This document shows, piece by piece, positions 113 to 32,064 of a DNA stretch of 43,945 nucleotides. Position 1 is the stretch's first letter; each line of letters starts with the position of its first letter. The notes under the pieces were generated by a model. The model did not search any database. It was not told the DNA's origin and saw nothing but the letters and a program-made list of their open reading frames with translations. The DNA comes from Escherichia phage vB_EcoS_PNS1: sequence record NC_073063.1; one strand, written 5' to 3'. The translations under genes and the position numbers were made by a program.

Positions 113-432
113 ACGAAGCGGGACAGGGGTGCTGTCCCGCTTTGTCCCGCCACCATTAAACCGCATATATACTCACTTTTATTGCATAAACTAAAAGCGG
201 GACAGGGGTGCTGTCCCGATCTGTCCCGCCCCTTAAAAGTGAATAGCTATGCGGTTTTTCTGCATAAAACAAACGGGACAAAAAGCGGGACAGAATGAGG
301 CGGGACAAAGCGGGACAGCACCCCTGTCCCCGTCAGTGCTGCCGCGTGTTTTAGCCGGTCGGGACAGGCGGGACAAACCCCAGTCTTTCAGACTAGACGG
401 GGGTCAATGGCCCCCCTCGTCTGAGACTGAAT
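113..432. repeat. GCGGGACA repeat array with three 19-bp palindromes (GGGACAG-N5-CTGTCCC) and a GC-rich terminal hairpin; copy A
   Basis: Palindromes at 120-138, 200-218 and 312-330; at least 8 direct GCGGGACA(R) half-sites; hairpin agacggggg/cccctcgtct at 400-428; 3-prime ~190 bp about 85 percent identical by eye to 27545-27740. Confidence 0.8.
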
Positions 433-497
433 AAGGTTTGTTTTAAATTCGCTGATACAATGACCGACGGCAACTGCATAAAAAGGGGGACTGCATA

Positions 498-5301: not shown

Positions 5302-5909
5302 CCACGTTTAAATTATACGGCGTTTTAGGACGTCGATTCGGTAAAGTGCATAAGCTGGATTGCTTCACTCCTGGCGAGGGTATCACCGGCCTGTGCGTGA
5401 AGTTACCCGGCTTACAGGACTTTCTAATGTCGGCCCACCTGGACAATATGATGTTCAAGGTGCGCAAAGGCGACCACACGATGACCGGCTATGATGAGTT
5501 GGGCGAGTTCCACGGCAACCGCGTAGTTACCATCGCGCCGGTTATGACGGGCGCAAAAAGAGGTCTGGGCCAATTGCTGGCGGGTGTGGTAATAGTGGTG
5601 GCGTCGTTCTATACCGGCGGACTTGCTACCGCCGCTTTCGGGGCTTCGGCTGCAACCGCTGCCGCTATTGGGACAGCGACGTTTTCGTTCGGCATGTCGC
5701 TTGCGCTGGGCGGTGCTATGCAATTGCTGTCCCCACAGCCGAAAGGATTGCAGACACGGCAGGACGTGGATAACAAAGCGTCGTATGCGTTCGGCGGACC
5801 GGTAAACACGACCGCACAAGGTACGGCACTTGGTGTATTATGGGGCGAGCGTGAGATCGGCGGCGCTATTATTTCAGCCGGAATCGTAACCGAGGACTTA
5901 AACGAATGA
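5292..5909 (+). CDS. tail assembly protein, lambda gpI-like
   Basis: Synteny directly upstream of J-like gene; Gly/Ala-rich hydrophobic C-terminal half. Confidence 0.7.
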   Translation: MAMTTFKLYGVLGRRFGKVHKLDCFTPGEGITGLCVKLPGLQDFLMSAHLDNMMFKVRKGDHTMTGYDELGEFHGNRVVTIAPVMTGAKRGLGQLLAGVVIVVASFYTGGLATAAFGASAATAAAIGTATFSFGMSLALGGAMQLLSPQPKGLQTRQDVDNKASYAFGGPVNTTAQGTALGVLWGEREIGGAIISAGIVTEDLNE

Positions 5910-8900
5910 CGATTGTATACGACGTCACAGGCCATAAAGGCGGCGGAGGCAAACAGCACACCCCACAGGAGACGCCAGATAGCCTGCATTCGCTGGCTAA
6001 AATCCGCATCTTGCTTGCGCTGGGGGAAGGGGAATTCGAAGGCATTACGAGCGCCAGCGAATTACGGCAGCGCGTATATCTGGACGGAACACCGATCCAG
6101 AATGCAGATCTGTCTGAAAACTTCCCCGGAGCGCGCGTGGAGTTCCGCCCCGGCACACAGCACCAGGATGTGATCCACGGATTTTCAGCGGTGGAAAGTG
6201 AGCAATCCGTCGGTGTAAAACTGGAAAACGGTACGCCGTGGGTGCGCCAGATTAACGACACCAGTCTTGACGCCGTGCGCGTTCGCATCGGCATTCCTGC
6301 CCTGTACACTAGCGAAGATAATGGCGACCTGGTGGGTGGGCGCATCGACTATAAGATCGTTGTGTATACGGATAACGCCGACCCGCGTGAGTTTACCTTC
6401 GCTGCCGTTGGTAAAACAATGTCTCTATACGAGCGCGATCACCGCATCGAGCTACCGCCGAACGTTAACACGGGCTGGCGCGTGGAGGTGCACCGCATAA
6501 CGGCAGACTCCACATCGGCAAAAGTGGTTAACAATATCCGGGTGCAATCTATTACTGAGATTATCGACGCCCGTCTTCGATACCCGCTAACCGCGCTGTT
6601 GTTCGTGGAGTTCGACGCTAAAGCGTTCCAGAACATCCCGCGCGTGTCCATCAAGTGCAAAGGCCGCAAAGTTCTAATACCTAACAACTACGACCCTATT
6701 AATCATACCTATTCGGGGGACTGGGACGGCACGTTCAAACGTGCATGGACGGATAACCCTGCGTGGCACTGGTACGATATTTGTATTACTGAGCGCTTCG
6801 GCCTCGGTCGTCGGATCAAACCGCAAATGCTGAACCGGTACGCGCTCTACCAGATCGCGCAGCGCTGCGATCAGTTGGTCAGCGACGGCAACGGCGGACG
6901 GGAAATCCGATTTAAGAATGATATGTACATCCAGTCGCAGACAGACGCCTGGACCGTGCTTAAGGATTTAGCTGCCATCTTCGCCGGGATGACCTGGTGG
7001 GGAAACCAAATGTTGAATATCGTCAGTGACCAACCGGTCGCAGCAGTGTCGCACACTATCACCAACGCCTCGGTAATTGATGGGCGATTCGACTACGCAT
7101 CCGGCAGCCAGAAAACTCGGTATTCAACTTTCGCGGTCGCATACGGCAACCCGAAAAACCACTATGATGACGCTATCGCAACGGGCCAGCGCGTCGAACT
7201 GGTACGCCGCCATAAGATAAACCGTCTTGATATCACAGCGATCGGCTGTACGCGCGAGTCAGAAGCGCAACGCCGAGGGCACTGGGCGCTAATCTCAAAC
7301 CAGCTTGATCAGCAAGTTAGTTTTAAGGTTGGCATGGAGGGGTTATTCTTTATCCCCGGTAGCGTAGTCGCGATCGCAGATACTAATATATCCGGCGGAT
7401 TCGAGACTCGCGGCGGTCGCCTGTTGTCAGACCCTGGAACGCGTACCGTGCTTAACACAGACAGCGAAATCACATTCCGCCCTGGTGATAAGTTCTTGGT
7501 GCGCACCGATAGCGGAAATGTGGAGACTCGCGAGATCGCCAGCGTCAACGGCAACAAGGTCACGCTAAAAACCGCACTGGATGCCGACCCGATTCCAGAC
7601 CAACCGTTTTGCGTTGATGGCGACGATATCCAGTTGCAAAAATTCCGCATCACCGACCTGGAATATGACGACTCTACGAGCACTTTCTCAGTGCGCGGGA
7701 TTGAATACAACGATAGTAAGTATGATGCCGTTGATAATGGCGCTCGCCTTGACCCAGGCATCTTTACGCAAGTGCCGGACGGTGTAATGAAGGGGCCGGA
7801 ATCCGTGACCATCACCCCGTCGCAGATCTCATCGCAAGGCCAGCTAATCACCAACGTGGATATTGTTTTCCCGCCGGTGAAAGATGCCGTGGTGTATGAA
7901 ATCCAGTGGAGGCGTACTAGCCTGCAGAATATGGAGATCCAGTGGGGTAACGACTGGGTGAATATCCCGCGCACGGCGTCGAATGGGGCGCACATTCCTA
8001 ACGTGTTCTCCGGTAACTATCAGGCACGAGTCCGCGCAATTGGCATGGGCGAAATCTCGTCCCCGTGGGTGTCTTCCGCGGTCACGCCGGTGGAAGGTCG
8101 CCTCGGTGGGCTTAACGCCCCAATCATCACCAACGCGATTTCGGGTCTGCATCAAATTCTATGGAAGTGGAATCACAACAACGCTGCGACTGATATCTCA
8201 TACACCGAGCTTGAAGTGCGCAAGACGGGTGAAACGGAATGGAAATTCTTAACAAACGTCCCATATCCTGGCGCGGAGTACGCGCAAACGTCGCTGGAGT
8301 TCGGCATATACCAGCAGTTGCGCGCCCGTGTAGCGGATAAAATCGGCAACCTGTCTGACTGGTCCGCCCCGTTCGAAGGCCAGGTGAGTGACAAAGTTGA
8401 CGAGTACATGAAGGGGCTTGATGACGAGTTCTTGACTTCCGAGGACGGTAAACGCTTCCAGGAAGCGATCGAAACCATGCCGCAAGGCATTTATGAAGCC
8501 ATGCTCACCGACGCGCAGCAATTGTTCAACGCCCGCGCCGAGTACAAGGGTATCTATGCGGAAATCTCGGTCGCGTATAACGTGGCGTCGGACGCCCACA
8601 AGGCGGTCGCTCAACTGGAGACGTTGATCGGCACGCGACTTGACGATGCGGAAGCGGCGATCCACACGTTGCAGACAGCGCAAAGCACGCACGAACAAGC
8701 GTTCGCCCAGTACCAGCAAACTGTTGCCGCTAAGTTCGGGGAGCAGGAAGCCGCCATCCAGCAGGTGCAAACGGCAACGGCAGACGTAGCGGGCGCGCTG
8801 GCGGAGTACAAGACCCAGGTCGCGGCACAGTTCGGTCAGCAGTCCGCCGCTATCGAGCAGAAGATGACGTCCACGTTTAACCATGCCGGTGGCAACGCCA

Positions 8901-10078: not shown

Positions 10079-11581
10079 ATGGCAGCGGGTACGCTCTCTG
10101 TAACGAATAACAGCAAGGCGGTTGTCGGGGTAGGCACGGCGTTTACCTCGTTTACAGCTGGCGACTTCTTAACGCTGGTGGTGGGGCAAGTGCCCTACAC
10201 TGTTGCGATCGCGTCCGTCGAAAGCGACACCGCGCTTACGCTTGTGCTGCCGTTCGACGGCCCAACGGCAACGGGACTCGCCTGGGACGGCATCAAACGT
10301 GACACCATGTCACTTGCAACGATGGGCGTGACCGTCCAGGCGCAGAAAGCGCTACGCTTGATGATGGCGGATGAAAACAACTGGCGTGCAATCTTCGGCG
10401 ACGCTGAAGAAATCACCGTTACGCTGCCCAGCGGGCAAGTTATGCAGGGTATGTCATGGGGCTACCTGTCATCCTTGCTGAAGGACGTTGACCCCGTTGA
10501 GATGCGCAACCTGCAACAACAAGCCACCGCATCTGAAGCCGCAGCGCAGGGATTTCGCGATCAGGCCGAGGAGTGGGCGAAAAGCGTAAATGCGGATAAT
10601 CTGCTAACAAAATCCGGCAACCTGGCGGGCCTGGCTGACCAATCGGCGGCACGCGTCAATCTCGGTCTTGACCGCCTCGAGCAGTCTACATATGACACTA
10701 GACTTTTTGACGCTTCAGGCGGCTATTACTTCTTTATTGCAGATTCTGATTGGGGGTGTGTCCATAATACTGCCCCGGATTATCCACGCATTGCGTTACC
10801 AGTAGCCAGTGGTGGAACTGGGGGAACAACAGAGTATTCAGCGTGTCAAAATCTACGTGCGCTCAACTGTGCCTATGATATCAACACAAATTACGGTTCT
10901 GAACAATTGTATACAGGTATCGGATTTTACGGCCGAGATGTGTCACCGCAGCCTGGGGGTGACGGCGGGCCTTTCGGCTGGGCCGAGATTATGACAATTG
11001 CGGAGGGGGGTGGTGGCCCTGGATCGGTGGGTAACTGGTCACAGATCGGTTTTTCCACTGCCGCCTCACAGGCCCCGCGCTACCGTCAACGCATAGCCAA
11101 CCCGGGGCAGGTTACTAACTGGCGGGATTTCTTAATTCGTGACCTAAACACCACTGTTGACAGCAACGGTTTTATTAAAATCGCATCCCCTATTGTGAAA
11201 ATCAAAGGTGACGGGACCGCAGAGTTTAACGACGAGTCCGAAGGTTGCTCTGTAACACGGGTGTCCAAAGGTGTTTATGTAATATCGGGTTGTCTGGGCC
11301 TCAATTCCGACGCGTCATGGGGCGGGGTCAATGGCGGCTTTGAGATACCGGTAGATGTAAACAAGCAACCTTTGTTGTGGCTGGATTATGAAGTATTGGA
11401 TGAGGGAAGTATTGAGATTCGCACCTACCACCGCACGCATACTAACGCGCCTAAGTTCGCGAGAAATATTATTGACGGTATCGAAGACGGCGATCCGATA
11501 GATATCCCACCAAGCACCTACATCTCTGTTAGGGTGCAAATGCCCACAACAGGATTGGAAACAGCCACGAGTAGTGCGTAG
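10079..11581 (+). CDS. tail fiber protein
   Basis: 500 aa Gly/Ser/Thr-rich protein downstream of J module; RBS agagga. Confidence 0.7.
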   Translation: MAAGTLSVTNNSKAVVGVGTAFTSFTAGDFLTLVVGQVPYTVAIASVESDTALTLVLPFDGPTATGLAWDGIKRDTMSLATMGVTVQAQKALRLMMADENNWRAIFGDAEEITVTLPSGQVMQGMSWGYLSSLLKDVDPVEMRNLQQQATASEAAAQGFRDQAEEWAKSVNADNLLTKSGNLAGLADQSAARVNLGLDRLEQSTYDTRLFDASGGYYFFIADSDWGCVHNTAPDYPRIALPVASGGTGGTTEYSACQNLRALNCAYDINTNYGSEQLYTGIGFYGRDVSPQPGGDGGPFGWAEIMTIAEGGGGPGSVGNWSQIGFSTAASQAPRYRQRIANPGQVTNWRDFLIRDLNTTVDSNGFIKIASPIVKIKGDGTAEFNDESEGCSVTRVSKGVYVISGCLGLNSDASWGGVNGGFEIPVDVNKQPLLWLDYEVLDEGSIEIRTYHRTHTNAPKFARNIIDGIEDGDPIDIPPSTYISVRVQMPTTGLETATSSA

Positions 11582-11587
11582 CGCTGG

Positions 11588-11618
11588 AAAAAGGGCCATA
11601 AGGCCCTTTTTTTTTTTT
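11588..11618. terminator. bidirectional rho-independent terminator between convergent operons
   Basis: Stem aaagggcc/ggcccttt flanked by A-run and an 11-nt T-run. Confidence 0.6.
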
Positions 11619-12192
11619 AGTTTGAGTTTTCCCAGTCCATTTTTCGCCGCACCAGTGGGCTTTCGTAATATTCCTTACCTTCAACTTCCACTAAAGGCCA
11701 ATCGTTCACGATCACGTATGGCTCTGCTATATCCTCAATAACACCGTGCGCGCTATGCTGCCCGAACGACACACCGACCAGAATAACACCGGCAACTCGA
11801 CGAGCAAGATACTCGCGAGCGCAACGTGCCTCGACCAGTCCTCGACGGATGCCGCTGGTGGCCTTAACCTCGTAGGCCCATACGGCATCGACCACATGCT
11901 CGCGGAAGTCGGGACCGGACTTCACCTTGCGCTTTCCAACCATGATAATATCGCCGCGGTCAATGGTGTTGGCACTAAACAGGCCGGTACGCATCAGTAA
12001 GCCTTGCGGGATACAACTACGCCCGCCAGCCTGACCCTCAAGGTACATTCCTGCAAACATCTCGCCCAGCACACCGACAAGACGGCTTTGCTTGCACGCG
12101 TCAGACTTTAGGCGCCACTGGTCAAACTCGATGCTTGCTATCATTGCCGCCAGATGGAATTGTTTACCTGATATTTCATATTCGCCGTACAT
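11617..12192 (-). CDS. hypothetical protein, possible PD-(D/E)XK-type nuclease
   Basis: 191 aa; GPD...x13...EVK arrangement resembles PD-(D/E)XK core; GAGGA RBS; last gene of minus-strand operon. Confidence 0.35.
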   Translation of the reverse strand: MYGEYEISGKQFHLAAMIASIEFDQWRLKSDACKQSRLVGVLGEMFAGMYLEGQAGGRSCIPQGLLMRTGLFSANTIDRGDIIMVGKRKVKSGPDFREHVVDAVWAYEVKATSGIRRGLVEARCAREYLARRVAGVILVGVSFGQHSAHGVIEDIAEPYVIVNDWPLVEVEGKEYYESPLVRRKMDWENSN

Positions 12193-12234
12193 CGTGTGGT
12201 CCTCATTGATGCGGGCCGAAGCCCGCGATTAGAA

Positions 12235-12726
12235 TTATTTCAGTGCGCCAGTCACCAGTGTTTTTTCCATGTTACGGAAGTCTTCCGGCGTAATAAGTAT
12301 TTTGGACCCATCTTCGCCGGTGAGCACGACCATAGGCTGGACGTCCTGGTCTACGACGCCGAAATTGGCGGCTTTGACAGTCTTGCCCGCGGAAGAATGC
12401 AAGCCTTTTAGGCTACCGTATTGCGCTGCCGTTGTATCGATCTGAATATCGTCATGCACTGTCATGTAAGACTCGCCCAGCAAGGCCGCATACGCTACCA
12501 GGTCGACGATGTTATCTTCCTGGTGCTTACGGTGCTGGCGCACCAGCTTCAGGCAGATCAGGAATGTCCAGGCTTCTTGCTCGGTAAGATCGCGCCCGGT
12601 AAGCGCGTTAAACACGGCGGCGATCTGTTTAGCGCTGCGTTCTTCTTTCGCGTTGTCATAGCCGTTTTCTTTCCCGCGCTGTTCCATAGTGGTGGCGGCG
12701 TTTTTGCAGTATTCGTATGCTTTCAT
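12235..12726 (-). CDS. hypothetical protein
   Basis: ATG at 12726 with AAGGA RBS; 163 aa; the ORF-track start at 12885 has no RBS and overlaps the upstream gene. Confidence 0.5.
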   Translation of the reverse strand: MKAYEYCKNAATTMEQRGKENGYDNAKEERSAKQIAAVFNALTGRDLTEQEAWTFLICLKLVRQHRKHQEDNIVDLVAYAALLGESYMTVHDDIQIDTTAAQYGSLKGLHSSAGKTVKAANFGVVDQDVQPMVVLTGEDGSKILITPEDFRNMEKTLVTGALK

Positions 12727-12778
12727 TATGTTTTCCTTTTTAGTGGGGGCGGTATTGCCCCCGACGTGATTAAGATAC

Positions 12779-12800
12779 TGCAACCAACCTATTGGTTGCA
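12779..12800. promoter_or_regulatory. palindromic operator-like site TGCAACCAA-N4-TTGGTTGCA
   Basis: Inverted repeat with 9-bp arms, upstream of the minus-strand gene starting at 12726. Confidence 0.4.
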
Positions 12801-13259
12801 AGTATATTTTGCAACGTTTATTGCGTAAATTTTCGGGACCAGATCGCCGCACGCCAGACGAATTGCCGCGATGTTCTTCTCGCAATCTTCAATGATGACC
12901 AGTTCCGACACGTCAGCATAGCAGACCATTTTGAACACGGCGCACGCTTTAAACTCTGGCGGCGGGGTGTCGTCCAGCATGTGGCGCATAAACAACCGCC
13001 CTGTCGGGAATACTTCCAGTTGCTCGGCGGTGGTGTCCCAACATTCTAGCTGCCGGTTTGTCAGATACGCGATCTCGAAGCCTTGCTCTTTGTACATGCG
13101 CAACAGCGGCAGCATATCCATGTTCAGGTCTTCGCGGACGTGCGCCTTGTGCCACTTCGCCCAAAAGGTGGATTTAGTTTTTATCCCCGGCACCAGGTCG
13201 GCGCGCGCATCGCTTGATCCATTAATAACGCCATCCAGGTCACAAATCAGTAATTTCAT
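12789..13259 (-). CDS. HAD-superfamily phosphatase / 5-prime nucleotidase-like
   Basis: N-terminal ICDLDGVI matches HAD motif I (DxDG); GAGGA RBS; translationally coupled to upstream gene. Confidence 0.7.
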   Translation of the reverse strand: MKLLICDLDGVINGSSDARADLVPGIKTKSTFWAKWHKAHVREDLNMDMLPLLRMYKEQGFEIAYLTNRQLECWDTTAEQLEVFPTGRLFMRHMLDDTPPPEFKACAVFKMVCYADVSELVIIEDCEKNIAAIRLACGDLVPKIYAINVAKYTCNQ

Positions 13260-13480
13260 TTCAATTCCTCAATCAAATTTGCACGAACAATACGGGCGGA
13301 AGACGTGTAACACACTAGATGCCAACGGGCGGTCATTACGAGCCAGCCGGTAAGATCCATCCCAAGCAATTGCTCGGGGCGGATAACGCGACGTACTTTA
13401 TTCTCCCTCAGGTTGATTTGGTAACGTTTAACAATTTCGTCCACGACGCGCAGACTGCGGTCAACGATTAAGATATTCAT
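13256..13480 (-). CDS. hypothetical protein
   Basis: Small ORF coupled (ATGA overlap) to the HAD gene; start taken at first ATG. Confidence 0.4.
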   Translation of the reverse strand: MNILIVDRSLRVVDEIVKRYQINLRENKVRRVIRPEQLLGMDLTGWLVMTARWHLVCYTSSARIVRANLIEELK

Positions 13481-13946
13481 GTAGCTCACTCTCGCTCATT
13501 ATTTCAATTTGTGCGCTGCCGATTGGTGGCGCTTCGTCAAAGATTATCAATTGCTGGCACTTGTTATTGCTCGGCCCGACTTCACCGGTGACCGCATGGA
13601 TGAATCGTACACGCCAGTCCAGAAGAATTATCAGGTTTGCAGTCTTCCGGGCCAACTTCGCCCACTTCGTCGACGTGTCCTGATTCAGTAGCATGACAGT
13701 CCGGCGTCCGTGCGCTGCACACTCGACCCACGGCAGCGGATCGGAATACGGCGGATTGCACCACTTCCACCCTTTCAACTCTGACCAGTCCACTTCAAGC
13801 GCGCTGTGATCTGCCGTGAAATAACGCGGTAGCAGATGGTTGGCGTCGCTTGCCGCCATGTCATAACGGAATCGGTACTTCCGGCGCAGCGGTTTAAATA
13901 AAGCTGGCGGCGTGCGCCAGCTATCTTTTTGCTCACTCTTCTGCAT
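13461..13946 (-). CDS. dam: DNA N6-adenine methyltransferase (phage Dam family)
   Basis: 161 aa with WRTPP...CNPPYSD (NPPY catalytic motif), typical of small phage Dam methylases. Confidence 0.85.
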   Translation of the reverse strand: MQKSEQKDSWRTPPALFKPLRRKYRFRYDMAASDANHLLPRYFTADHSALEVDWSELKGWKWCNPPYSDPLPWVECAAHGRRTVMLLNQDTSTKWAKLARKTANLIILLDWRVRFIHAVTGEVGPSNNKCQQLIIFDEAPPIGSAQIEIMSESELHEYLNR

Positions 13947-14397
13947 GACCTGGATCTATCGCGTATAAAGGGACTTTATTGCCGGTTTTCATAACGCGTT
14001 GGACGCGCTTCGACTCCTCGGCGCTCATTGGGCGCATATCAGTGCTGTAACCACCGTTTGATGTATGCCGCCACGCCATAAGCACCAGGTCTTTCCGGTC
14101 AATCTTAGACTGGCGGCCCTTCGGACGGACGTACTCCTCGGCCAGTTTGCAATGCTCGCGCAGACCTTCGGCAGTGATGCGGTTTAGCGCGACGGTGGTT
14201 GTGTACCCGGTGCGCTGCATAATACCCATCAACTCATACAGCAGTTCGAAGCGCTCCTCTAACTCCTTGCGCATCTTTTCCTCGCCTTCATAGCTCGCCA
14301 TGTAGGTATCCGCCAGCGCGTTCGCCCGTTCGACCTGTTCGCGGGCTTCGAGGCATTGCGCGGCCCAGTAATTTTTCTCTTCTTGTAAAATTTTCAT
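13933..14397 (-). CDS. hypothetical protein
   Basis: 154 aa, GGAGA RBS; hairpin plus T-run lies in its 5-prime leader (14412-14437). Confidence 0.5.
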   Translation of the reverse strand: MKILQEEKNYWAAQCLEAREQVERANALADTYMASYEGEEKMRKELEERFELLYELMGIMQRTGYTTTVALNRITAEGLREHCKLAEEYVRPKGRQSKIDRKDLVLMAWRHTSNGGYSTDMRPMSAEESKRVQRVMKTGNKVPLYAIDPGHAEE

Positions 14398-14478
14398 CGT
14401 GTTGTCTCCAGGTATTAAAAAAGGCGTCCAAACCGGACACCCTTAAGATAATGCAACCAATATTATTATGCAACCAAT

Positions 14479-14802
14479 TTACGCATAAAAATTTGGGTCG
14501 CGTGCAACGTCTACCAGGTAAAGGTTGCTTATGCGGTTGCCGTAGTGGCCTGGTGTGCGCTGACGGCACACAACGGCGAAGCCTGGAGGGATTGTATTGC
14601 CCGTCTCTATAATCCACGCCACGCGTGCGCCGGATAGCGTCTTGCCGTTGTACTCGATACGTGTTCCGCCGTCGGCAGTGTTAAGGTTGCCAATCTTGCT
14701 ACCGGTAGACTTCAGGCGTATAACGCCCGTTTTGCTGTCATAGGTGAATAGCTGATTGGTCATTGCCACTGAAAAGTCGATGGCGTCGAATGCAGTATTC
14801 AT
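14479..14802 (-). CDS. HNH_3/NUMOD4-like homing endonuclease homolog, degenerate active site
   Basis: Pattern F-YD..TG.L..KS.G...IEYNGK...ARVAW...TG..P.GF...GNRISNLYL matches HNH_3 layout but His positions are replaced (ARVAW, VCRQR). Confidence 0.5.
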   Translation of the reverse strand: MNTAFDAIDFSVAMTNQLFTYDSKTGVIRLKSTGSKIGNLNTADGGTRIEYNGKTLSGARVAWIIETGNTIPPGFAVVCRQRTPGHYGNRISNLYLVDVARDPNFYA

Positions 14803-15494
14803 TTTAAATTTTCCTCGTTAACCGCTATCGCGAAGCCGCGCGGAGTGAGTGAGCGGATTAATTTTGTACGAGCGGATTTACCACCGAGGCGACTATACTG
14901 TTTCGAGTACCCTTTTTCAACGAAAACAGGTTTCTTCTCTGGCATACGGAAGCCGTTGCCGGTCCATAAGCAAGTCAGCTTCGGATATGAATCGCGGGCG
15001 TTGATGTATTCCGGGAAGAGCGGGTGTACGTCATCCTCCGGCAGATACCCCCCATACTCCCACGGGTCGAACGAGTGATCCGGCTTGCGCCACTGGGTGG
15101 AAAGCACACTGCGCGGATTCTCAATCATATATGGCACTTCGAAGAAGTCACCCAGGTAAGCGGCGATCTTCGCGGTGCGCACCGCCTTAAGCTGAAAGGC
15201 GGGGTCTTTTGCACGTTTGCGAGGGAAAGCTGGCGCGCCGCTCACTGCCAGATCCGTACACGGAGGGAACGCATAGATTATATCCGGCGTACCGAAATCG
15301 CCATTCATCGCGCGGTCCACAAAGTCCATATCGATAAACTCATTGCGATATCGGATTCCACGACCATAAATCCGGTAGTCAAGGTATGATCCGTGATCGG
15401 CTTCGGAGTAGTTGAAGCAATAACACTTATGCCCCATCTCGGCAGCACGCTCAATCATCAAGCCGCTGCCGTCAAATAATGACCAGATAATCAT
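14799..15494 (-). CDS. DNA (cytosine-5)-methyltransferase-like protein
   Basis: LFDGSG (motif I-like), FPPCTDLAVSG (PC motif IV-like), ENP (motif VI-like); short at 231 aa. Confidence 0.55.
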   Translation of the reverse strand: MIIWSLFDGSGLMIERAAEMGHKCYCFNYSEADHGSYLDYRIYGRGIRYRNEFIDMDFVDRAMNGDFGTPDIIYAFPPCTDLAVSGAPAFPRKRAKDPAFQLKAVRTAKIAAYLGDFFEVPYMIENPRSVLSTQWRKPDHSFDPWEYGGYLPEDDVHPLFPEYINARDSYPKLTCLWTGNGFRMPEKKPVFVEKGYSKQYSRLGGKSARTKLIRSLTPRGFAIAVNEENLK

Positions 15495-16915
15495 TTGCGC
15501 GCCTTTTTAGCTTTCATGTATTCCATTAAATCGTCCTGAATGTCTCGCTTACTGTCGCGTCGCTCCGCGACCAGCTCGTCCAGTGTGCCGCGCGCCTGGA
15601 TAATGTAGACGAATACGGGACGAGGGTGTCCGGCTTGCATCTGGCGAACTGGCCCGATACGCTCCACGATCTGCGCAAAGTGCTCATAGTTCCAGGTGTC
15701 TGAGAAGATAGCAAGGTGGTGTCCCCCATCCTGCAAGTTAAGGCCGTGACCCGCCGATGCCGGGTGCGCAAACATGATGGGGATCTCGCCCCTGTTCCAC
15801 GCTTCCATATCCTTATTTCCTTGCTTTCCCTTACCCATCGCGACGCCGTGCGGGAATTTCTTCTTAAGACGTGCCAAGTCATGCTTGTACTGGTACGCGA
15901 CGAGCAACGGTGCGCCGTTCAACTCCTCCACGATACTTTCCAGCGCGTCCAGTTTAGCGTCGTGGATTTTCACCCATTCGTCGGTGCGCTCGCCGTCTTC
16001 GTCGACTTTATACACGGCCCCGGAAGCAAGCTGAAGGCACTTAATAGTCTTCGACGCAGCGTTCGCCGCCTCCACAGTTCCGCTTTCCAGTTCGGCAAAT
16101 AGCTCCGCTTCGAACTGGTCATAAATCTTGCGGGCTTTCTTCGGCAGGTCCACAACAACCGGCGTATAGATCGGCTTGTCACATCCGAAGTATTCAGCCG
16201 CATCAACGGTTAGCGACACGTCGGACAGGCGTTGTTGGATTTCTTTCTCGGAGTTCTTAAGCGGGGCGTGCTGCGTAATGAAGCTGCCAGGCTTAACAGG
16301 CTTGCTAATAAACCAGCGGTCCGTGAATGCCTTATAGCTACTGCCGAGGCGTTCTCCGCCGTCGACAAACCACGTCTGCCCCCACAGGTCTTTCAATCCG
16401 TTTGGCGCGGGTGTGCCGGTAAGGTTAATCCAGCGCTTGACGTGCTTATGTGCGATCGCTGCCAGCGCACGGGCGCGCTTACTTCCCTGCTTGCTTCGAT
16501 AGCCTTTCAGCTTAGTCGATTCATCGGCAACCACGACCGTAAAGGGCCATTCGTCGCCGCAATACTCGACGAGCCACTCAACCACATCATAGTTAACACA
16601 AACCACGTTAGCGACGCTCTCAAGCGCAGCGATGCGGTCCTTCTCCGACCCGGTGCCGTCTACTACCAGCAGGGCGGGGAAGCGCCATTTTTCCTGTTCC
16701 GGGGGCCATGTGCCAGATGCAACGCGCAGCGGGGCCAGCACCAGTACGCGGTCCTCCTGGTTGGACAGGATGCCGGTCTGGAACATTTTATTCAGCGCCC
16801 ACAGGGTCGCGCCAGTTTTACCCGACCCCATTGTCGCCCATATATTGCATCGCTTATGCTTGAGGATGAACGCGGTTATCAACTTCTGATATTCGCGACG
16901 TCGGAAACGTGCCAT
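15491..16915 (-). CDS. superfamily II DNA helicase
   Basis: Walker A MGSGKTG and DExx box VVADES; start at internal ATG 16915 (474 aa), coupled to upstream small gene. Confidence 0.85.
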   Translation of the reverse strand: MARFRRREYQKLITAFILKHKRCNIWATMGSGKTGATLWALNKMFQTGILSNQEDRVLVLAPLRVASGTWPPEQEKWRFPALLVVDGTGSEKDRIAALESVANVVCVNYDVVEWLVEYCGDEWPFTVVVADESTKLKGYRSKQGSKRARALAAIAHKHVKRWINLTGTPAPNGLKDLWGQTWFVDGGERLGSSYKAFTDRWFISKPVKPGSFITQHAPLKNSEKEIQQRLSDVSLTVDAAEYFGCDKPIYTPVVVDLPKKARKIYDQFEAELFAELESGTVEAANAASKTIKCLQLASGAVYKVDEDGERTDEWVKIHDAKLDALESIVEELNGAPLLVAYQYKHDLARLKKKFPHGVAMGKGKQGNKDMEAWNRGEIPIMFAHPASAGHGLNLQDGGHHLAIFSDTWNYEHFAQIVERIGPVRQMQAGHPRPVFVYIIQARGTLDELVAERRDSKRDIQDDLMEYMKAKKARK

Positions 16916-16919
16916 ATCT

Positions 16920-17138
16920 TTATTCCGCCTTTTTCCAGACTTCGGTTTCACTGTTCCAGTTCCTTTTTGTGGCGTCGTAGTTGGTGCTGTACCCGATGTG
17001 TACACCCGTCGCCCGGAAGCTCTTAAATTTTTGCCAGCACACCGTCAACGGCAGCGGGTAATTCATGCCCGCGATAAACCATACGCGATCGCCAGGTTTG
17101 CATTCGCCCAGTGTGGTGAGTCGGTAGTGTTCTTTCAT
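16920..17138 (-). CDS. hypothetical protein
   Basis: 73 aa from ATG 17138 with GGAGA RBS; preceded by hairpin ggcgggc/gcccgcc containing a GCGGGACA half-site. Confidence 0.4.
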   Translation of the reverse strand: MKEHYRLTTLGECKPGDRVWFIAGMNYPLPLTVCWQKFKSFRATGVHIGYSTNYDATKRNWNSETEVWKKAE

Positions 17139-17181
17139 CGTCATGTCTCCCAAAAATGGCGGGACAAGCCCGCCGTATTAA

Positions 17182-17355
17182 TTATTCTTGCGCTGCGCGG
17201 TAGCGGCGCTGCCGTTCGCGCTCTTTCTTATTGCGGCATGATTTGCACTCGGCTCGATACCCGTCTGGACTGCGCGCAGTCTTACCGGTGTATTTGTGGA
17301 ACTGGGATAGCGGCTTGACGCAGCCGCAATTACTGCAGCGTTTTTCTTCAATCAT
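17182..17355 (-). CDS. small zinc-ribbon protein
   Basis: 57 aa from ATG 17355 with GAGGA RBS; CxxC...CxxC; similar to N-terminal repeats of the HNH endonuclease at 17671..18273. Confidence 0.45.
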   Translation of the reverse strand: MIEEKRCSNCGCVKPLSQFHKYTGKTARSPDGYRAECKSCRNKKERERQRRYRAAQE

Positions 17356-17395
17356 CTCTAAAATCCTCGATATGGCTAACCGGCACACTATACCG

Positions 17396-17674
17396 CTACG
17401 CGACCAATTCAGCAACCAATAAATCACAGTCGGCTATGTTGTCGATAACGCGAACGTCAGCACCGCGGCGGGCCATTCTCTCATGCTCACGTACCTGGTG
17501 CGGCTTCGGTTTTCCTCCTTGGCGCTTCACTTCGACGAACACTATTTTGCCGTTGATGATAATAATCAGGTCGGGCGCACCCGCGCGCCCCTCCCATGCC
17601 AGTTTTCGGCAGAATCCGCCGACCTCTTTCACCCGTTTCATCAGGTGACTTTGAATCTTGCCTTCTGGTGTCAT
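17396..17674 (-). CDS. VRR-NUC domain nuclease
   Basis: 92 aa from ATG 17674; D...EVK PD-(D/E)XK core in a VRR-NUC-sized protein; AAGGA RBS. Confidence 0.75.
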   Translation of the reverse strand: MTPEGKIQSHLMKRVKEVGGFCRKLAWEGRAGAPDLIIIINGKIVFVEVKRQGGKPKPHQVREHERMARRGADVRVIDNIADCDLLVAELVA

Positions 17675-18273
17675 TGTCGGCTTTTCCTTACGGCGGCGAT
17701 GGCAGGTCCGATAAACTTCTTCATTTCGTCCGGGGTAAACCGATCCCCGCGGGCTATGTTGCACTCTACGCAGCACGGCACGCAGTTATCTTTCGTATGG
17801 CCTACTGCGTTGTCGAGTCGGTCCGCGCCATTGTCGCCGGTGAATCCGCAGTATGCGCACGGCTGAGAAGTAAGGCGCAGCACGTCCTCTGTAGTAAGGT
17901 CGGTGTTTAGCCCCTTCCTTTCGTCTGCCTTACGGTACTGAAAGAGTTTATAGTAAGCGCGGATCTCTGGTGTCCGGTGGTTGTACTCACGGCGTGACTT
18001 ATTAGCGCACGATCGGCATTCTTTACGAATATGCGACCCGTTTGCTTGGCTTCCGGGCCGGAAGTTTTCCGGCGTGAGCGGCTTGCGCTCACCGCACGTA
18101 CGACATGTTACGACCTCCCCGGTGTACTCTCGCCATACTTCTCTCGGCGGCGCGCCTCTTTCCTTATCCCGTCTCTCTTTCTTATATGCCGCCATGCATT
18201 TGGCGCACCACGACTGGCCCTTGTTGAAAGCGGACTCATCTTTACCCGTATTACAACGCCCACAATGTTTCAT
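17671..18273 (-). CDS. HNH homing endonuclease with N-terminal zinc-ribbon repeats
   Basis: C-terminal CAYCG...DRLDN...GH...N...CVPCCVECN HNH-type motif; several CxxC pairs N-terminally; start at ATG 18273 with GAGGTG RBS. Confidence 0.75.
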   Translation of the reverse strand: MKHCGRCNTGKDESAFNKGQSWCAKCMAAYKKERRDKERGAPPREVWREYTGEVVTCRTCGERKPLTPENFRPGSQANGSHIRKECRSCANKSRREYNHRTPEIRAYYKLFQYRKADERKGLNTDLTTEDVLRLTSQPCAYCGFTGDNGADRLDNAVGHTKDNCVPCCVECNIARGDRFTPDEMKKFIGPAIAAVRKSRQ

Positions 18274-24758: not shown

Positions 24759-25088
24759 ATGAATATCAACGACGCAATCGAAATGTTAACTAAAACTGTT
24801 TGCAGTGAGACTAGCCGGTCCTGGGCGTATACCGATGCCGTGGGTGCGGTGCTATTTGAAATCGAACGTCTGCGACTTACCGAAAAAGCATTGCGCGCGA
24901 AGCTGGAATTACTCAACGGTACGGCAGCCAGCAAGCTGCAAAAACACAATGAAGAAATGGAAGAATACAAAAAACAGGTTATCCGTCTACGTGAGGAAGG
25001 TAAATCCTGGGCCATGATCGCCGAGCTAACCGGAATTAATCAGAGCACAGTGCGCTCATGGGTACGCAATAATAAAACTTCTAAGTAA
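24759..25088 (+). CDS. HTH DNA-binding protein, candidate transcriptional regulator
   Basis: 109 aa; C-terminal SWAMIAELTGINQSTVRSWVRN helix-turn-helix; first plus-strand gene after the divergent region. Confidence 0.6.
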   Translation: MNINDAIEMLTKTVCSETSRSWAYTDAVGAVLFEIERLRLTEKALRAKLELLNGTAASKLQKHNEEMEEYKKQVIRLREEGKSWAMIAELTGINQSTVRSWVRNNKTSK

Positions 25089-25098: not shown

Positions 25099-27363
25099 AT
25101 GAGCTTAATTAAATTCGCTGTAACACGACCCGCTAAAAAAGGCGAAAAAGCCAGGGCGGAAAACTTCCAGATGACCACCGATGAATTTTTCGAATTTATC
25201 AATGACGCGAAAGAAATCTCCTCGGTGCATATCAACAAGACGGAAGATAAAGCCGAGTATGCGCGCCGCAAGCGTAAGGCCGATGGCATCGTGGCGTATA
25301 CCAGTGACGGCTTACGCCGCAAGACCAGTGCGGTGGACCGCTCGATCCTGTTCTTCGATATTGACCGCACCGACACCCGCACCTTACGCCGCTGCCGTAA
25401 GGCTTTCATCGACGCGGGGCTGGAGCACGTATTCCACACCACTACGGGCGACCGCCACCCGCTGAAGGGCGGAACGCGTTGCGCCCGTTTCCTGGTGCTC
25501 ACTGACAAGCCTGTCCCGGCGGAAGACCTGGGCCGTGTCCAGTATGCGCTATTACACCAACTGGGTCTGTCAGATGTGGACTTCGACGATTGCACGAAAG
25601 ACACAAACCGCCTGATGTACCTGCCGCACCAGCAATCGGTTATTAAGTGCCACTATGGCAAACGTGCCAGTGTCCGTCGTCTGCTTCGCCTGGCGGATAA
25701 GCTGGGGGTGGAGAAGGAGGAAGTCCGCCGCGAACTGACCAAGGGCGACGACGCCGTGGCAGACGGCATTCTGGACTGGTGCTTCCAGGCGGGATTCGAG
25801 GAGTTATCTTCCGGGCGGGGCTATGAAGTGCCGTGCCCTAACGAACACCTGCACAGCGGCGAAGGGTCCACCGCCATAATGGTCAAGGATGGCGAGATCC
25901 GTTTCAAGTGTATGCACACCGGCAACGAGTGCTGCTCGGAGCTGAACAGACACCAGCACCTGGCGCTCCGTCTTATCGGTATCCCGGACCACCTGAACGT
26001 CGAGCCGCACAACATGTCACGTAAGCAAATCGCCGCCATCCTGCCAGGTCTGGACGACGAGGAAGTCGAATCATTATATGATCATATTGTTGATGCGGTA
26101 GGCGACGGCGAAGAATACGGCGTGTGCACCGATTCGGATCTGGATAACGAGCCGGTCGCACTGTTCAGCAAGCACGACCCGATCATCGAAGGTCTGATTA
26201 ACTTTAAATCGACCTGGTATCTCGCCGGTGAGTCGAACATTGGTAAGTCTTTCTATGTGCTGGGGCAAATGGCTTCAGTATCTGCCGGTATTCCGTTTGG
26301 TGGGGCGAAGGTCGTCCAGTGCCACAACTTCTATTTCGATGCGGAAGGTGGTGAAGCCTCTAACCAGCGTAAAGAAGCATTGCAGATTAAATACGAGCAC
26401 GACCTGGATAAGCTGCACATTATCGATCTGCAATCACGCGGCTGGGATATCACCAGCAAATCAGGCTTGCGCGAAGTTATCAGCTTTATCAACCGCACCG
26501 CTAACGGCGAACCGGTTGGCCTGGTGGCGTTCGACTCACTCAACCAGACTGTTGCGTTGCGGTCCGCGGATGCTAAACCGTTCGACGAGAACAACGCCAG
26601 CGATATGGGTGAAGTGGTCAAAGCGCTGAAGGCCATCGCGGAAAATACAGGTGGCAGTGCGGGCGTCATCCACCACCCGGCGAAGGGTGCAAACGGCAGC
26701 AGAACCCCACGCGGGTCCGGCGCGCTGCATGGTGCTGTCGATTCTGCGTTCTTCCTGGAACAGCCGGACGACAACCAGCCAGGCCAATTGAACCTGTATC
26801 ACGAAAAGGCACGTAACGGCATCAAGCAAGCGCCGCGAGGCTTCGTCCTGCTCAAGTGCAAGGTGAAGGTGGATCTCCGCAAGTCAGAAGCGTTCGCGTC
26901 GCACCAGTCCACCAGCACCGGGCCAGACTTCGGTGACGTGGTTGCCGGTTGGGACGTCAAGCCAATTGCATCCACGCCACGCGACGAGACTCTGTATCTC
27001 GTACCGGTCGCCCTGGCACCGTTCGCCATCGAACAGGCAAAGTCCGCTGGCAAGGCCGCAGTTAAGGAAGAGAACGCCGCAGGACCGCGCAATGAAAAAG
27101 AGAAAGTGCTCTATGCGGCGCTGGAAAAACTGATGGAAGATAACCCGGACAATACCGGATTCAGCAAATCGGCAATTGTCCGCCAGGCTGGACTGGCAAA
27201 AGGTGGAACATCGACGAAGGCAATCGACGATATGGTCGAGCGCGGCGTACTCGGTTTTTATACAGACCCACACACCGGAGCCATCTATGGGTCGTCGAAT
27301 ATCGTCATCAAAACGAATATACCCATCACGCTTTCGGCGACCGATGACGACCTGAAAGATTAA
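25099..27363 (+). CDS. primase/helicase-type replication initiator (RecA-fold ATPase domain)
   Basis: 754 aa; Walker A GESNIGKS, Walker B-like LVAFDSLNQ; central Cys/His cluster; iterons begin at its stop codon. Confidence 0.85.
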   Translation: MSLIKFAVTRPAKKGEKARAENFQMTTDEFFEFINDAKEISSVHINKTEDKAEYARRKRKADGIVAYTSDGLRRKTSAVDRSILFFDIDRTDTRTLRRCRKAFIDAGLEHVFHTTTGDRHPLKGGTRCARFLVLTDKPVPAEDLGRVQYALLHQLGLSDVDFDDCTKDTNRLMYLPHQQSVIKCHYGKRASVRRLLRLADKLGVEKEEVRRELTKGDDAVADGILDWCFQAGFEELSSGRGYEVPCPNEHLHSGEGSTAIMVKDGEIRFKCMHTGNECCSELNRHQHLALRLIGIPDHLNVEPHNMSRKQIAAILPGLDDEEVESLYDHIVDAVGDGEEYGVCTDSDLDNEPVALFSKHDPIIEGLINFKSTWYLAGESNIGKSFYVLGQMASVSAGIPFGGAKVVQCHNFYFDAEGGEASNQRKEALQIKYEHDLDKLHIIDLQSRGWDITSKSGLREVISFINRTANGEPVGLVAFDSLNQTVALRSADAKPFDENNASDMGEVVKALKAIAENTGGSAGVIHHPAKGANGSRTPRGSGALHGAVDSAFFLEQPDDNQPGQLNLYHEKARNGIKQAPRGFVLLKCKVKVDLRKSEAFASHQSTSTGPDFGDVVAGWDVKPIASTPRDETLYLVPVALAPFAIEQAKSAGKAAVKEENAAGPRNEKEKVLYAALEKLMEDNPDNTGFSKSAIVRQAGLAKGGTSTKAIDDMVERGVLGFYTDPHTGAIYGSSNIVIKTNIPITLSATDDDLKD

Positions 27364-27500
27364 TTTGTGCGCGCATTGGTTGCCGATATGGGAATTCCCA
27401 TATCGCTAAAAGATTAATTTGTGCGCGCATTGGTTGCCGATATGGGAATTCCCATATCGCTAAAAGATTAAATTCTGCGCGCATTGGTTGCCATTTAGGG
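27361..27500. repeat. tandem 54-bp iterons each with a 20-bp perfect palindrome; candidate replication origin
   Basis: Units at 27361-27414 and 27415-27468 are identical, third partial; palindrome GATATGGGAATTCCCATATC at 27385-27404 and 27439-27458; each unit carries ATTGGTTGCC. Confidence 0.8.
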
Positions 27501-27544
27501 TGTTTTTATCCGGTCGTATTGGTTGCCGTGTAGTGTAAATATAA

Positions 27545-27740
27545 TGAATAGTTATGCAGTTTTATTGCATAAAGTAAGCGGGACAGAAAGCGGGACAAAC
27601 AAGGGGCGGGACAAAGCGGGACAGCACCCCTGTCCCGCCCCGGATGACGCGGCCTGGCGAGGAGCGGGACAGGCGGGACAAACCCCAGTCTTTCAGACTA
27701 GACGGGGGGTCTGTCACCCCCCTCGTCTGAGACTGCATAA
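27545..27740. repeat. GCGGGACA repeat array with palindrome GGGACAGCACCCCTGTCCC and terminal hairpin; copy B
   Basis: About 190 bp, about 85 percent identical by eye to the 3-prime part of 113-432; palindrome at 27618-27636. Confidence 0.8.
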
Positions 27741-27894
27741 AATCCGGTATTGCAAAATACACGGCAGCATGTTGCGGATCGCGGTCGTCGCTGAACTAGG
27801 CAACCAATGCGAGATGCAGAACGGGGTGTGAAAAATGCAGTTTGCAGATTCAGCAGATAGCGATCAACTTTTTCATACGCGTGATTAATATTGG

Positions 27895-30921: not shown

Positions 30922-32064
30922 ATGCACCCGCAAACTAAAATTACCGATGAGCAATTGATCGCAGAAATTCAGGCAGGGACTACGGTTAAAGAGATTGCGA
31001 AGAAGTACGGCATTGCACTTCGAAATGTCTACATGCGCAAAGCCCGCCTATCAAAAAAGGGGATTGGTCATGGCAATGACGCCGTGATCCGTAAGCGCGT
31101 TGCCGATGGCTTTGGGGTTAAGCGCGTATCGGCCCTGGTGCGCGGCAATGGCGAAGAGGTCATGTCGTGGGTCATCACTGAGCAGGACAAGGAGCGCCAA
31201 CTCGAAGCAATGCGCGCTGTTGTCGAGGGTATGAACAGCGAAATCACACCGGCAGCGCCAGTAAAAGCCCCGCCAGTACCGATCCAGGCGCTCGACTTGC
31301 TCAACCTGTACACCGTGTCAGACTTCCACCTGGGCATGTTGGCATGGGGCGAGGAGACTGGCGAAGACTGGGATATGGCGATTGCCGAAGACCTGTTCTA
31401 CCGCTGGTTTGTCGAAGCCTTCGCACGCGCCCCGGACGCAGGCACTGCCGTAATTAATATCCTCGGTGATATGGCCCACTTTGATAGCCTCGATGCTGTC
31501 ACTCCGGCAAGTGGTCACATACTGGACGCCGACACCCGCTACCAGAAACTGGTCCGATACATGATTCGCATGGTGCGCAACGTCGTCGAACTGGCGCTGC
31601 AAAAACACCACAAAGTCAAACTGCTAATCGTCCAGGGAAATCATGACGAGTCGGGTATGATTTGGCTGGCTGAGATGTTCAATACTCTGTACGAGAACGA
31701 GCCGCGCGTCGATGTAGATACGTCCCCGGACGTCTACAAAATGGTGCAGCACGGTAAGACCACGCTATTCTTCCACCACGGGCACAAAGCGCGATTCGAT
31801 GCTATCGAGCAGGTTATGATCGCTAAATTCAGACAGGAGTTCGGGTCGAGCGAATACAGCTACGCGCACGTAGGCCATTTGCACCACCAGAAGATTGTCG
31901 AGTCTCGCAACATGATTGTTGAGCAGCACCGGACGCTCGCAGCGAAAGACGCCTACGCCAGTCGTGGCGGTTGGATGTCCGGTCGCAGCGCAAACGTCAT
32001 CACCTATAGCGCCAACTACGGCGAAGTAGCGCGCTTAACCATTAGCCCGGAAATGTTGAAGTAA
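30922..32064 (+). CDS. HTH-domain protein fused to calcineurin-like metallophosphoesterase
   Basis: 380 aa; N-terminal HTH (TVKEIAKKYGIALRNVYMRKAR); motifs DFH, GDMAHFD, GNHDE, HHGH. Confidence 0.7.
   Translation: MHPQTKITDEQLIAEIQAGTTVKEIAKKYGIALRNVYMRKARLSKKGIGHGNDAVIRKRVADGFGVKRVSALVRGNGEEVMSWVITEQDKERQLEAMRAVVEGMNSEITPAAPVKAPPVPIQALDLLNLYTVSDFHLGMLAWGEETGEDWDMAIAEDLFYRWFVEAFARAPDAGTAVINILGDMAHFDSLDAVTPASGHILDADTRYQKLVRYMIRMVRNVVELALQKHHKVKLLIVQGNHDESGMIWLAEMFNTLYENEPRVDVDTSPDVYKMVQHGKTTLFFHHGHKARFDAIEQVMIAKFRQEFGSSEYSYAHVGHLHHQKIVESRNMIVEQHRTLAAKDAYASRGGWMSGRSANVITYSANYGEVARLTISPEMLK

Follow-up and report, generated by a model that had tools for sequence, protein, structure and literature searches.

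The replication origin of SaPIs lies directly 3' of the rep gene and is composed of 6-12 penta- or hexanucleotide iterons, which are opposed around an AT-rich centre and read by the C-terminal winged helix of a self-loading helicase, to which a primase is fused in SaPI5 (PMC9371898). The stem-loop origin of pRN1 comes after an operon for a repressor and a primase-helicase, an arrangement that has also been described in phages (PMC4234260). Here, we analyzed two non-coding loci, called region A and region B, which carry arrays of the half-site GCGGGACA in Escherichia phage vB_EcoS_PNS1 (NC_073063.1). The analyzed DNA, referred to as the window, is 43,945 nt long and represents the complete genome of a Dhillonvirus (an HK578/SO-1-like siphovirus of E. 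coli). On balance, we favor the interpretation that the phage has an iteron-type replication origin in two copies, A and B, served by a self-loading primase-helicase, similar to the SaPI Rep/ori pair. Dhillonviruses are common coliphages in therapy and in BASEL-type collections, and their origins are unmapped, as are those of most phages with RepA-like primase-helicases. The analysis offers two candidate origin sites, a candidate initiator, and a recognizable layout, its points of note being the copy in the tail operon and the breadth of the GGGAC-iteron class.

The likeness to SaPIs is one of layout (ori 3' of the initiator gene, short opposed iterons, an AT-rich centre, and an iteron sequence specific to the lineage), and no sequence homology has been shown. 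The ATPase of SaPI Rep is AAA+/MCM-like or of SF3 type, whereas that of the phage protein has a RecA fold and is RSF1010 RepA-like; furthermore, SaPIs have a single ori, whereas the phage has a second copy 16 kb off in the tail operon as well as an invariant 49-nt hairpin. In the orf56/orf904 locus of pRN1, a gene for a small DNA-binding protein is followed by a gene for a winged-helix primase-helicase and, directly downstream, by a non-coding origin with an essential stem-loop, and the phage would share this succession. However, pRN1 is an archaeal plasmid, ORF904 is an SF3 helicase, and its origin is a stem-loop of about 100 nt without an iteron array.

Three further systems resemble the phage locus in part. 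In the oriV of RSF1010, iterons and an AT-rich stretch occur together with conserved ssi hairpins recognized by the plasmid primase, i.e. the same three-part layout as here, and the RepA helicase of this IncQ plasmid is the best structural match to the phage helicase; however, iteron binding, priming, and unwinding are divided among RepC, RepB', and RepA, and each iteron measures 20 bp, whereas the phage has one fused protein and 8-bp sites. Satellite phage P4 encodes alpha, a primase-helicase whose C-terminal, sequence-specific DNA-binding domain recognizes short octamer repeats at ori and in a second cis-required region, crr, several kb off, though alpha is built of Toprim and SF3 modules, the repeat is TGTTCACC, and crr is an enhancer rather than a copy of the whole origin. 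Bacillus phage SPP1 has two similar origins for one initiator, oriL and oriR, located in the replication gene region and among distant late genes, but its initiator G38P is a separate replisome organizer and not a primase-helicase, and the repeats are unrelated. A second origin in a tail operon would be unusual, but not unprecedented.

Repeat arrays of regions A and B

Region A fills the spacer between the T frame of the chaperone G-T gene and the tape-measure gene, and region B begins where the primase-helicase gene ends, at its stop codon. Their parts are as follows (plus and minus signs in brackets give the orientation of successive half-sites).

114..497, plus strand: region A, spacer without coding, from the T-frame stop (taa 111-113) to the tape-measure ATG (498)
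118..150, no strand assigned: iteron cluster A1 (+ - -; palindrome 120-138)
151..196, no strand assigned: AT-rich spacer 1 with TGCATAAA (183-190), variable except for TGCAT motifs
197..229, no strand assigned: iteron cluster A2 (+ - -; palindrome 199-217)
230..273, plus strand: AT-rich spacer 2 with TGAATAGCTATGCGG (240-254) and TGCATAAA (261-268); start of homology to region B
274..332, plus strand: iteron cluster A3 (+ + + + -; palindrome 312-330)
360..377, plus strand: iteron pair (361, 370) adjoining the hairpin
381..429, plus strand: invariant hairpin CAGTCTTTCAGACT-AGACGGGGG-loop-CCCCCCTCGTCT-GAGACTG, G/C core 395-422
453..461, plus strand: extended -10 promoter-like TGATACAAT, as read from the sequence, 5' of the tape-measure gene
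27364-27950: region B, from the primase-helicase stop codon (27363) onward
27364..27539, plus strand: ATTGGTTGC repeats and a 54-bp tandem repeat
27540..27577, plus strand: TATAAT, then AT-rich TGAATAGTTATGCAG...TGCATAAAG segment
27578..27638, plus strand: iteron cluster B (+ + + + -; palindrome 27618-27636)
27664..27682, plus strand: iteron pair B (27666, 27675)
27686..27735, plus strand: hairpin copy B, stems as in A, loop different

The pattern GGGACAG-N5-CTGTCCC was found exactly four times in the genome, at 120-138, 199-217, 312-330, and 27618-27636, and not once in 100 dinucleotide shuffles. The half-site GCGGGACA occurred 21 times, compared with 2.1 ± 1.5 expected; nine copies are located in 118-375 and seven in 27578-27680, and the copy at 43936 merely repeats site 118, as the terminal 127 nt of the window are identical to its beginning. 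The four isolated sites (988, 17159, 23291, and 23435) correspond to the chance level, the one at 17159 being part of a terminator-like GGCGGG-ACAA-GCCCGCC hairpin and the one at 23291 falling within a gene. On both strands together, GGGAC cores numbered 13 in the region A arrays, 7 in region B, and 63 in the whole genome, with one further core in the ribosome-binding site of the tape-measure gene. The initial annotation of this DNA, which was made from the sequence alone, had described three palindromes, at least eight half-sites, and a GC-rich hairpin between the chaperone and tape-measure genes. This description was confirmed, except that the second palindrome had been placed at 200-218 instead of 199-217 and that the hairpin, given as 400-428, is real but larger. 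The single half-sites that it had noted near 17158 and 23436 before early genes are chance matches.

As the initial annotation had also stated, the 3' part of region A recurs at 27545-27740, and positions 240-434 align with this segment with 83% identity over 199 nt. The shared module of about 195 nt contains GCGGGACA half-sites, an AT-rich TGAATAG..TGCATAAA segment, and the invariant 49-nt hairpin; a conserved spacer specific to A separates A3 from the iteron pair 361/370, and one specific to B separates cluster B from iteron pair B. In region A, the AT-rich segment 230-273 is flanked by opposed iterons, with minus-strand sites at 213 and 223 and plus-strand sites at 275-312, and the AT-rich segments carry TGCATA(A) motifs. 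Six TGCATAA sites (183, 261, 475, 492, 27566, and 27734) are all inside A or B; two of them flank the ribosome-binding site and start codon of the tape-measure gene (CTGCATAAAAAGGGGGACTGCATAATG, GGGAC included), and pairs of TGCATA 21 bp apart are seen in relatives. Two small open reading frames (ORFs), 249..434 in A and 27523..27831 in B, were ruled out by frame-breaking indels in relatives, and 1-nt indels among 16 relatives indicate that region A is non-coding, as had been proposed.

Conservation and age of the two copies

In total, 157 phage records matched positions 1-600 of the window at 80-97% identity. Regions A and B were present in essentially all of the about 155 Dhillonvirus records, with only two loci per genome at fixed positions, whereas in Cornellvirus PhiSTP1 and Hrm2, which represent sister genera, the chaperone and tape-measure genes are contiguous and region A is missing. 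Among 18 distinct region A sequences, 67% of the GGGAC columns were invariant compared with 40% of other array columns, the corresponding values being 8% for the end of the T ORF and 77% for the hairpin, the loop of which is variable. The arrangement of half-sites differed between phages (GGGACAG-N5-CTGTCCC versus GCGGGACAGGCGGGAC/GTCCCG), and 1-nt indels were found. In most relatives, A1 has the form GCGGGACAGGCGGGAC/GTCCCG-TTTT-GTCCCGC (+ + - -), so that the half-site is retained and its arrangement changed, and in several relatives the right arm of the A3 palindrome is lost and GCGGGACAGCACCCC is invariant. The conserved unit is therefore the half-site GCGGGACA, and not the palindrome or any ORF. 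Across genomes, identity reached 91% between A copies and 93% between B copies, but only about 82% between A and B, both within and between genomes, which indicates that the duplication predates the radiation of the genus and that the two copies have been kept separately.

The element had been flagged earlier in a database record, though it was never explained. The GenBank record of Sodalis phage SO-1 (2009; NC_013600 / GQ502199) annotates as repeat_region a 'region A' (11214-11597) and a 'region B' (40178-40657), the former with the wording 'direct, inverted and palindromic repeat sequences; sequence similarity with region B', and these are the same two loci as here. No published functional analysis of A or B was found in the Dhillonvirus literature (HK578, SO-1, SSL-2009a, EP23, and YD-2008.s), and a text search of the literature for the motif returned unrelated matches only.

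GGGAC arrays at primase-helicase genes of other viral lineages

IMG/VR was scanned for two GCGGGACA half-sites 1-8 nt apart (GCGGGACA-N1-8-GCGGGACA), and loci were classified as dense when 450 nt contained at least 8 CGGGAC sites, and as sparse when they had 4 sites or fewer. Beyond Dhillonviruses, the scan returned many unrelated contigs (GC content of 52-66%) with dense, intergenic, bidirectional arrays, commonly composed of two direct sites, a short GC-rich palindrome, and two inverted sites. In 18 out of 31 dense non-Dhillonvirus loci, the array was located between -224 and +46 nt from the stop codon of an AAA_25 helicase gene, whereas none of the 58 sparse loci showed this arrangement (Fisher p = 7e-11). 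With the control pattern GTGTGGCA, an AAA_25 gene was present in 2 of 120 loci and adjoined the repeats in one. The array-adjacent helicases are fused to Prim-Pol or Toprim primase modules, and their genes (18-20) form 12 clusters at <50% identity. When the ORFs of the window were compared with the 18 array loci, the primase-helicase was the only consistent homologue (15 of 18 loci); three other ORFs gave single matches near the cut-off of E = 1e-3. The terminase was not shared with the other array loci, and no homologue of the 109-aa helix-turn-helix (HTH) protein, encoded just upstream of the primase-helicase, was found in them. A layout in which short iterons at the stop codon of such genes are combined with an AT-rich segment and a hairpin recurs in at least 13 lineages and may be used for annotating origins in viral contigs.

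Two arrays of other sequence were noticed in passing. In a locus returned by the control scan (L253, 5940-6223), an array of GTGTGGCA comes within 5 nt of the 3' end of a different AAA_25 helicase gene, which adds another case of iterons at the stop codon of a gene of this type. An unrelated 35-kb viral contig, L012 (IMGVR_UViG_2693429871_000002), contains at 5560-5950 an array of GGGACAGAT, its inverted sets lying on either side of an AT-rich core, directly 5' of a gene for a DUF5906/VapE-like helicase; as this protein is unrelated, we treat the case as an anecdote.

Iteron sequence in relatives of the primase-helicase and of the chaperone

Lineages with a homologous primase-helicase keep an array right after its gene, each with its own repeat. 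In Cornellvirus, the array 3' of the gene consists of GGGGAGA repeats, including an inverted pair, together with GAATAGTTATGCAG, an AT-rich motif that is also common to regions A and B. The contig whose enzyme is 68% identical to that of the window (L167) retained GGGAC and the same hairpin, whereas those with 48% (L168) and 46% identity (L169) have TCGCAA and CTGCCAAC repeats, respectively; in all three, a gene for an HTH protein precedes the primase-helicase gene as here. The turn of the C-terminal HTH and the start of its helix 3 are common to the two GGGAC users and different in the others.

In distant relatives identified through chaperone G (57-62% identical), the module still lies 5' of the tape-measure gene. 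The iterons of two such contigs (L170 and L171) are GGGAC. In a third (L172, Logan contig ERR13731138_9710), the region A layout, the hairpin, and TGATACAAT are retained, but every iteron reads GTGTGGCA/TGCCACAC. The replacement of all sites together is the outcome expected from a change in protein specificity, and the survival of the hairpin through this switch marks it as a separately conserved sub-element. The proposal of the initial annotation that the block is a protein-binding array in an unexpected place is thus well compatible with the conserved half-sites and with the 8-mer switch in L172, but the functions it named do not fit, as detailed below. 

In these contigs, one or two inserted minus-strand genes separate the T (DUF1799) ORF from the module (3174-3554 in L170, 3174-3922 in L171, and 3177-3350 in L172), which suggests that the G-T/tape-measure junction is an insertion hot spot in that lineage. 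This finding might be taken to favor a selfish or relict MITE-like insertion, bounded by inverted repeats of 32-34 nt (118-151 / 299-330) and devoid of a phage function, and it would agree with the perfect 32-nt inverted repeats around about 150 nt of AT-rich DNA and with the absence of region A from sister genera. However, E. coli genomes and plasmids yielded no copy of the A/B module, the element occupies two fixed loci in about 155 genomes, purifying selection is specific to the motif, and each of the two copies evolves as an orthologous locus of its own. We consider this the least probable of all the explanations weighed here.

The candidate initiator and a model of the proposed origin

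The candidate initiator is encoded in a short operon.

24759..25088, plus strand: HTH protein, 109 aa (HTH_23 / Sigma70_r4_2-like), first in the replication operon
25099..27363, plus strand: primase-helicase, 754 aa, proposed iteron-binding initiator (AAA_25 8e-20, phrog_3228)

The primase-helicase is composed of an N-terminal primase-like part with a Cys/His cluster, an RSF1010 RepA-like helicase, and a C-terminal winged-helix-like domain. An AlphaFold2 (AF2) model built from 30 homologues (mean pLDDT of 76) showed an N-terminal alpha/beta domain carrying the invariant Cys/His cluster and a helicase with a RecA fold, for which the RSF1010 RepA hexameric helicase was the best PDB match in Foldseek (1nlf/1g8y; TM of 0.67-0.70, rmsd of 2.9 Å). 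Residues 666-737 are predicted to form an H-b-H-H-b-b unit, i.e. a winged-helix topology (pLDDT of 66-82); the single-sequence AF2 model of the C-terminal domain was poor. A PDB sequence search with the full primase-helicase gave no match, and almost no homologues of the C-terminal domain alone were found.

The C-terminal domain (27019-27360) also contains a motif, GF(S/T)xxxIVxxxGxxGG, that is similar to the first helix and the RVD loop in DNA-binding repeats of the BurrH/TALE-like kind. Comparison of the profile with PDB 4cja gave a summed E of 1e-24, yet only 3-14 bits per repeat, and the match is confined to the short motif GFSxADIVKIAGxGG. We regard it as a curiosity.

Comparative genomics places such arrays where primase-helicase genes end, on their 3' side, which points to a replication origin. 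We infer that the primase-helicase would bind the GCGGGACA half-sites, probably by means of its C-terminal winged-helix-like domain, assemble on the opposed arrays flanking the AT-rich TGAATAG/TGCATAAA segment, open the DNA, and prime synthesis. The hairpin would be a separate part of the module, perhaps a signal for single-strand loading or priming. Region B, directly 3' of the initiator gene, would then represent the canonical origin, and region A, placed between G-T and the tape-measure gene, an ancient duplicate that may act as a second origin or as an origin enhancer. Judged by the features of SaPI-type origins, both copies have at least six short repeats (5-8 bp) in both orientations (13 in A and 7 in B), an AT-rich segment lies between opposed iterons in A and partly so in B, and the position immediately 3' of the initiator gene applies to B, not to A. 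The iteron changes with the initiator lineage (GGGACA, GGGGAGA, TCGCAA, and CTGCCAAC). By the presence of iterons on both sides, A is more complete than B.

Several observations weigh against this model. Region A is situated 16.2 kb downstream of the initiator gene and within the late operon, which is unexpected for an origin, and in region B the GGGAC sites are found only 3' of the AT-rich segment. A and B both point in one direction, that of the late-gene sense strand, which would also fit an RNA or transcriptional role. Comparison of the Dhillonvirus C-terminal domain with the WRxxFY..RKxFQR domain of other GGGAC-array lineages was not significant in hhalign, and, as the C-terminal domains have no detectable homology, the shared 8-mer is left unexplained. 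The primase-helicase region belonging to L172 was not found in IMG/VR, the one metagenome match being due to chance, and a formal statistical test revealed no covariation in the hairpin. With regard to the shared 8-mer, GCGGGACA is common to 13 primase-helicase lineages, which might mean that a shared, unrecognized determinant reads the iteron; the short BurrH/TALE-repeat-like motif of the C-terminal domain gives a hint in this direction, but we consider this reading quite unlikely.

The hairpin and a possible role as RNA

The stems of the hairpin are invariant and its loop is variable, with 94.8% of cells pairing versus 36-57% in slid controls. An A.T to G.C change in the hairpin of L170/L171, recognized by eye, involves a register shift. 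Folding of both copies was more stable than that of shuffled sequences (z = -3.2 for A and -4.1 for B). These features could be those of a structured RNA, e.g. a cis-acting leader, a processive antitermination element of the type of HK022 put, or else a small RNA with GGGACA repeats, transcribed from the TATAAT at 27540 in the case of B or within the late transcript in the case of A. The co-orientation of the copies and the position of TATAAT directly 5' of the module in B are in accord with such a role. However, Rfam 15 gave no match at the gathering threshold, and at a permissive threshold only generic matches to miRNA-precursor-like hairpins, 40-70 bits under the cut-off; nor does covariation support the fold. 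Furthermore, the half-sites occur in both orientations, and several phages have lost the right palindrome arm and kept the left one. The iteron switch in L172 and the link to helicase genes argue for recognition as DNA, and we therefore regard the structured RNA as very unlikely.

Promoter-like motifs and possible transcriptional control

The initial annotation had mentioned 'iterons' beside the copy in region B. These are ATTGGTTGC repeats, which were found 15 times in the genome, compared with 0.46 expected, at the following positions.

10054, 12791, 14453, 14470, 17412, 24561, 27375, 27429, 27483, 27518: ATTGGTTGC sites
27800, 27890, 27921, 28651, 38346: ATTGGTTGC sites, continued

In at least five cases, the TTGCxx of ATTGGTTGC serves as the -35 element for a -10 element at a distance of 16-17 nt, and a palindromic TTGGT-N5-ACCAA is located just 5' of start codons at about 24726, 27922, and 38340 (minus strand). 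Judging by these sites, ATTGGTTGC looks like a phage promoter/operator motif rather than a replication iteron; it is associated with promoters genome-wide, and the copies in region B are probably promoter-type elements outside the GGGAC module. A 54-bp tandem repeat of about 2.6 copies, each with a perfect 22-bp palindrome, CGATATGGGAATTCCCATATCG, occupies 27352-27492; the copy number varies among Dhillonviruses, and the repeat is absent in SO-1 and EC115. An 18-codon ORF (27835-27888), MQFADSADSDQLFHTRD, has a conserved position between the B hairpin and the gp49 promoters and differs non-synonymously among relatives.

An alternative reading is transcriptional control, in which the arrays would serve as operators of a phage regulator, the 109-aa HTH protein for instance, and the hairpin would form a regulated terminator or an insulator at two operon boundaries, where the replication operon ends (B) and where the tail-shaft genes meet the tape-measure/tail-tip genes (A). 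Both copies are indeed placed, in sense orientation, at plausible operon boundaries. The A hairpin is followed by TGATACAAT (453-461), which was kept in all region A copies, including that of L172, and which the promoter consensus scan missed because it has no -35 element; promoters also follow B. Moreover, the A hairpin can be extended and is then followed by GGTTTGTTTT, and one annotator placed a terminator in region A. On the other hand, a scan for intrinsic terminators detected nothing at either hairpin, that of B lacking a T-run (U-tract in the RNA) after the stem, and a promoter scan found no -35/-10 element overlapping the A or B arrays. The HTH protein, unlike the primase-helicase, has no homologue in the other GGGAC-array loci, for which reason it was rejected as the cognate binder. 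Regulation of a late operon would also leave unexplained the bidirectional arrays of 7-13 sites at primase-helicase stop codons in 12 other lineages. We thus consider transcriptional control alone unlikely. A combined possibility, in which A is a complete bidirectional origin and at the same time a switch whose 13 sites, when occupied by the primase-helicase, would gate transcription of the tape-measure and tail-tip genes and couple it to replication, is in our opinion quite unlikely.

The initial annotation had named a second putative HTH protein as a possible binder, alongside that at 24759..25088. The latter is indeed an HTH protein, but the other is a metallophosphoesterase.

30922..32064: calcineurin-like metallophosphoesterase, SbcD-like (phrog_704, 'DNA repair exonuclease')

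Genome ends, packaging, and gene layout

The first 127 nt of the window are identical to 43819-43945, which is the overlap left by a k=127 assembler on a circular contig; accordingly, the circular genome measures 43,818 bp, and the window starts at an arbitrary point. According to published PhageTerm work, Dhillonviruses package by the headful mechanism and have circularly permuted genomes (PMC9022532, PMC8407724). The overlap and the published packaging mode rule out cohesive or physical ends at region A. The gene order agrees with that of annotated relatives.

~27951 across the window junction to 11581, plus strand: late genes
11617 to 23388, minus strand: replication genes
24759..25088 then 25099..27363, plus strand: short operon of the HTH protein and the primase-helicase
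32096: terS

GC skew was uninformative as an origin locator, since it tracks gene orientation.

The initial annotation had offered packaging, partition, or operator sites as functions of the block. A pac array for the small terminase or a partition (centromere) site would be in keeping with the short bidirectional repeats, which resemble such sites, and with the fact that several GenBank records start or end in A or B. MW862804, NC_073059, LR990702, and OX460974 end within the repeat shared by A and B, and two partial records, OK272475 (JLBYU27, 16,547 bp) and OR992647 (ST-T-K, 28,657 bp), approximate the A-B loops of 16.2 and 27.6 kb that recombination between A and B, or their collapse during assembly, would produce. 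However, these ends coincide with the A/B repeat boundaries or follow depositor convention, and the match of the 16.5-kb and 28.7-kb records to the loop sizes fits assembly breaks. The terminase genes, with terS at 32096, are near neither copy and are not common to the array loci, the published genomes being permuted by headful packaging. As for partition, no ParA or ParB was annotated in three relatives or found among the scanned proteins of the window, and the genus is described as lytic in the literature. These facts make a pac or partition site extremely improbable, and the operator function meets the difficulty that no promoter overlaps the arrays.

The A/B direct repeat breaks Dhillonvirus assemblies and may break genomes in vivo too. 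With a length of about 195 nt, it is a likely deletion site in engineered phages, and it may be a target of origin-based interference.

Two minor observations concern the genome and its relatives. The leftward early region is headed by a gene (23845-24357, minus strand) for a highly acidic protein of 170 aa with repeated KKAPAKGK-like lysine-rich segments, which belongs to phrog_3127 (unknown function). MG065648 ('Campylobacter phage A144') and OQ221563 ('Acinetobacter phage NJ01') are Dhillonviruses by sequence, with 85-94% identity across region A, and their host labels are probably mistaken or due to contamination.

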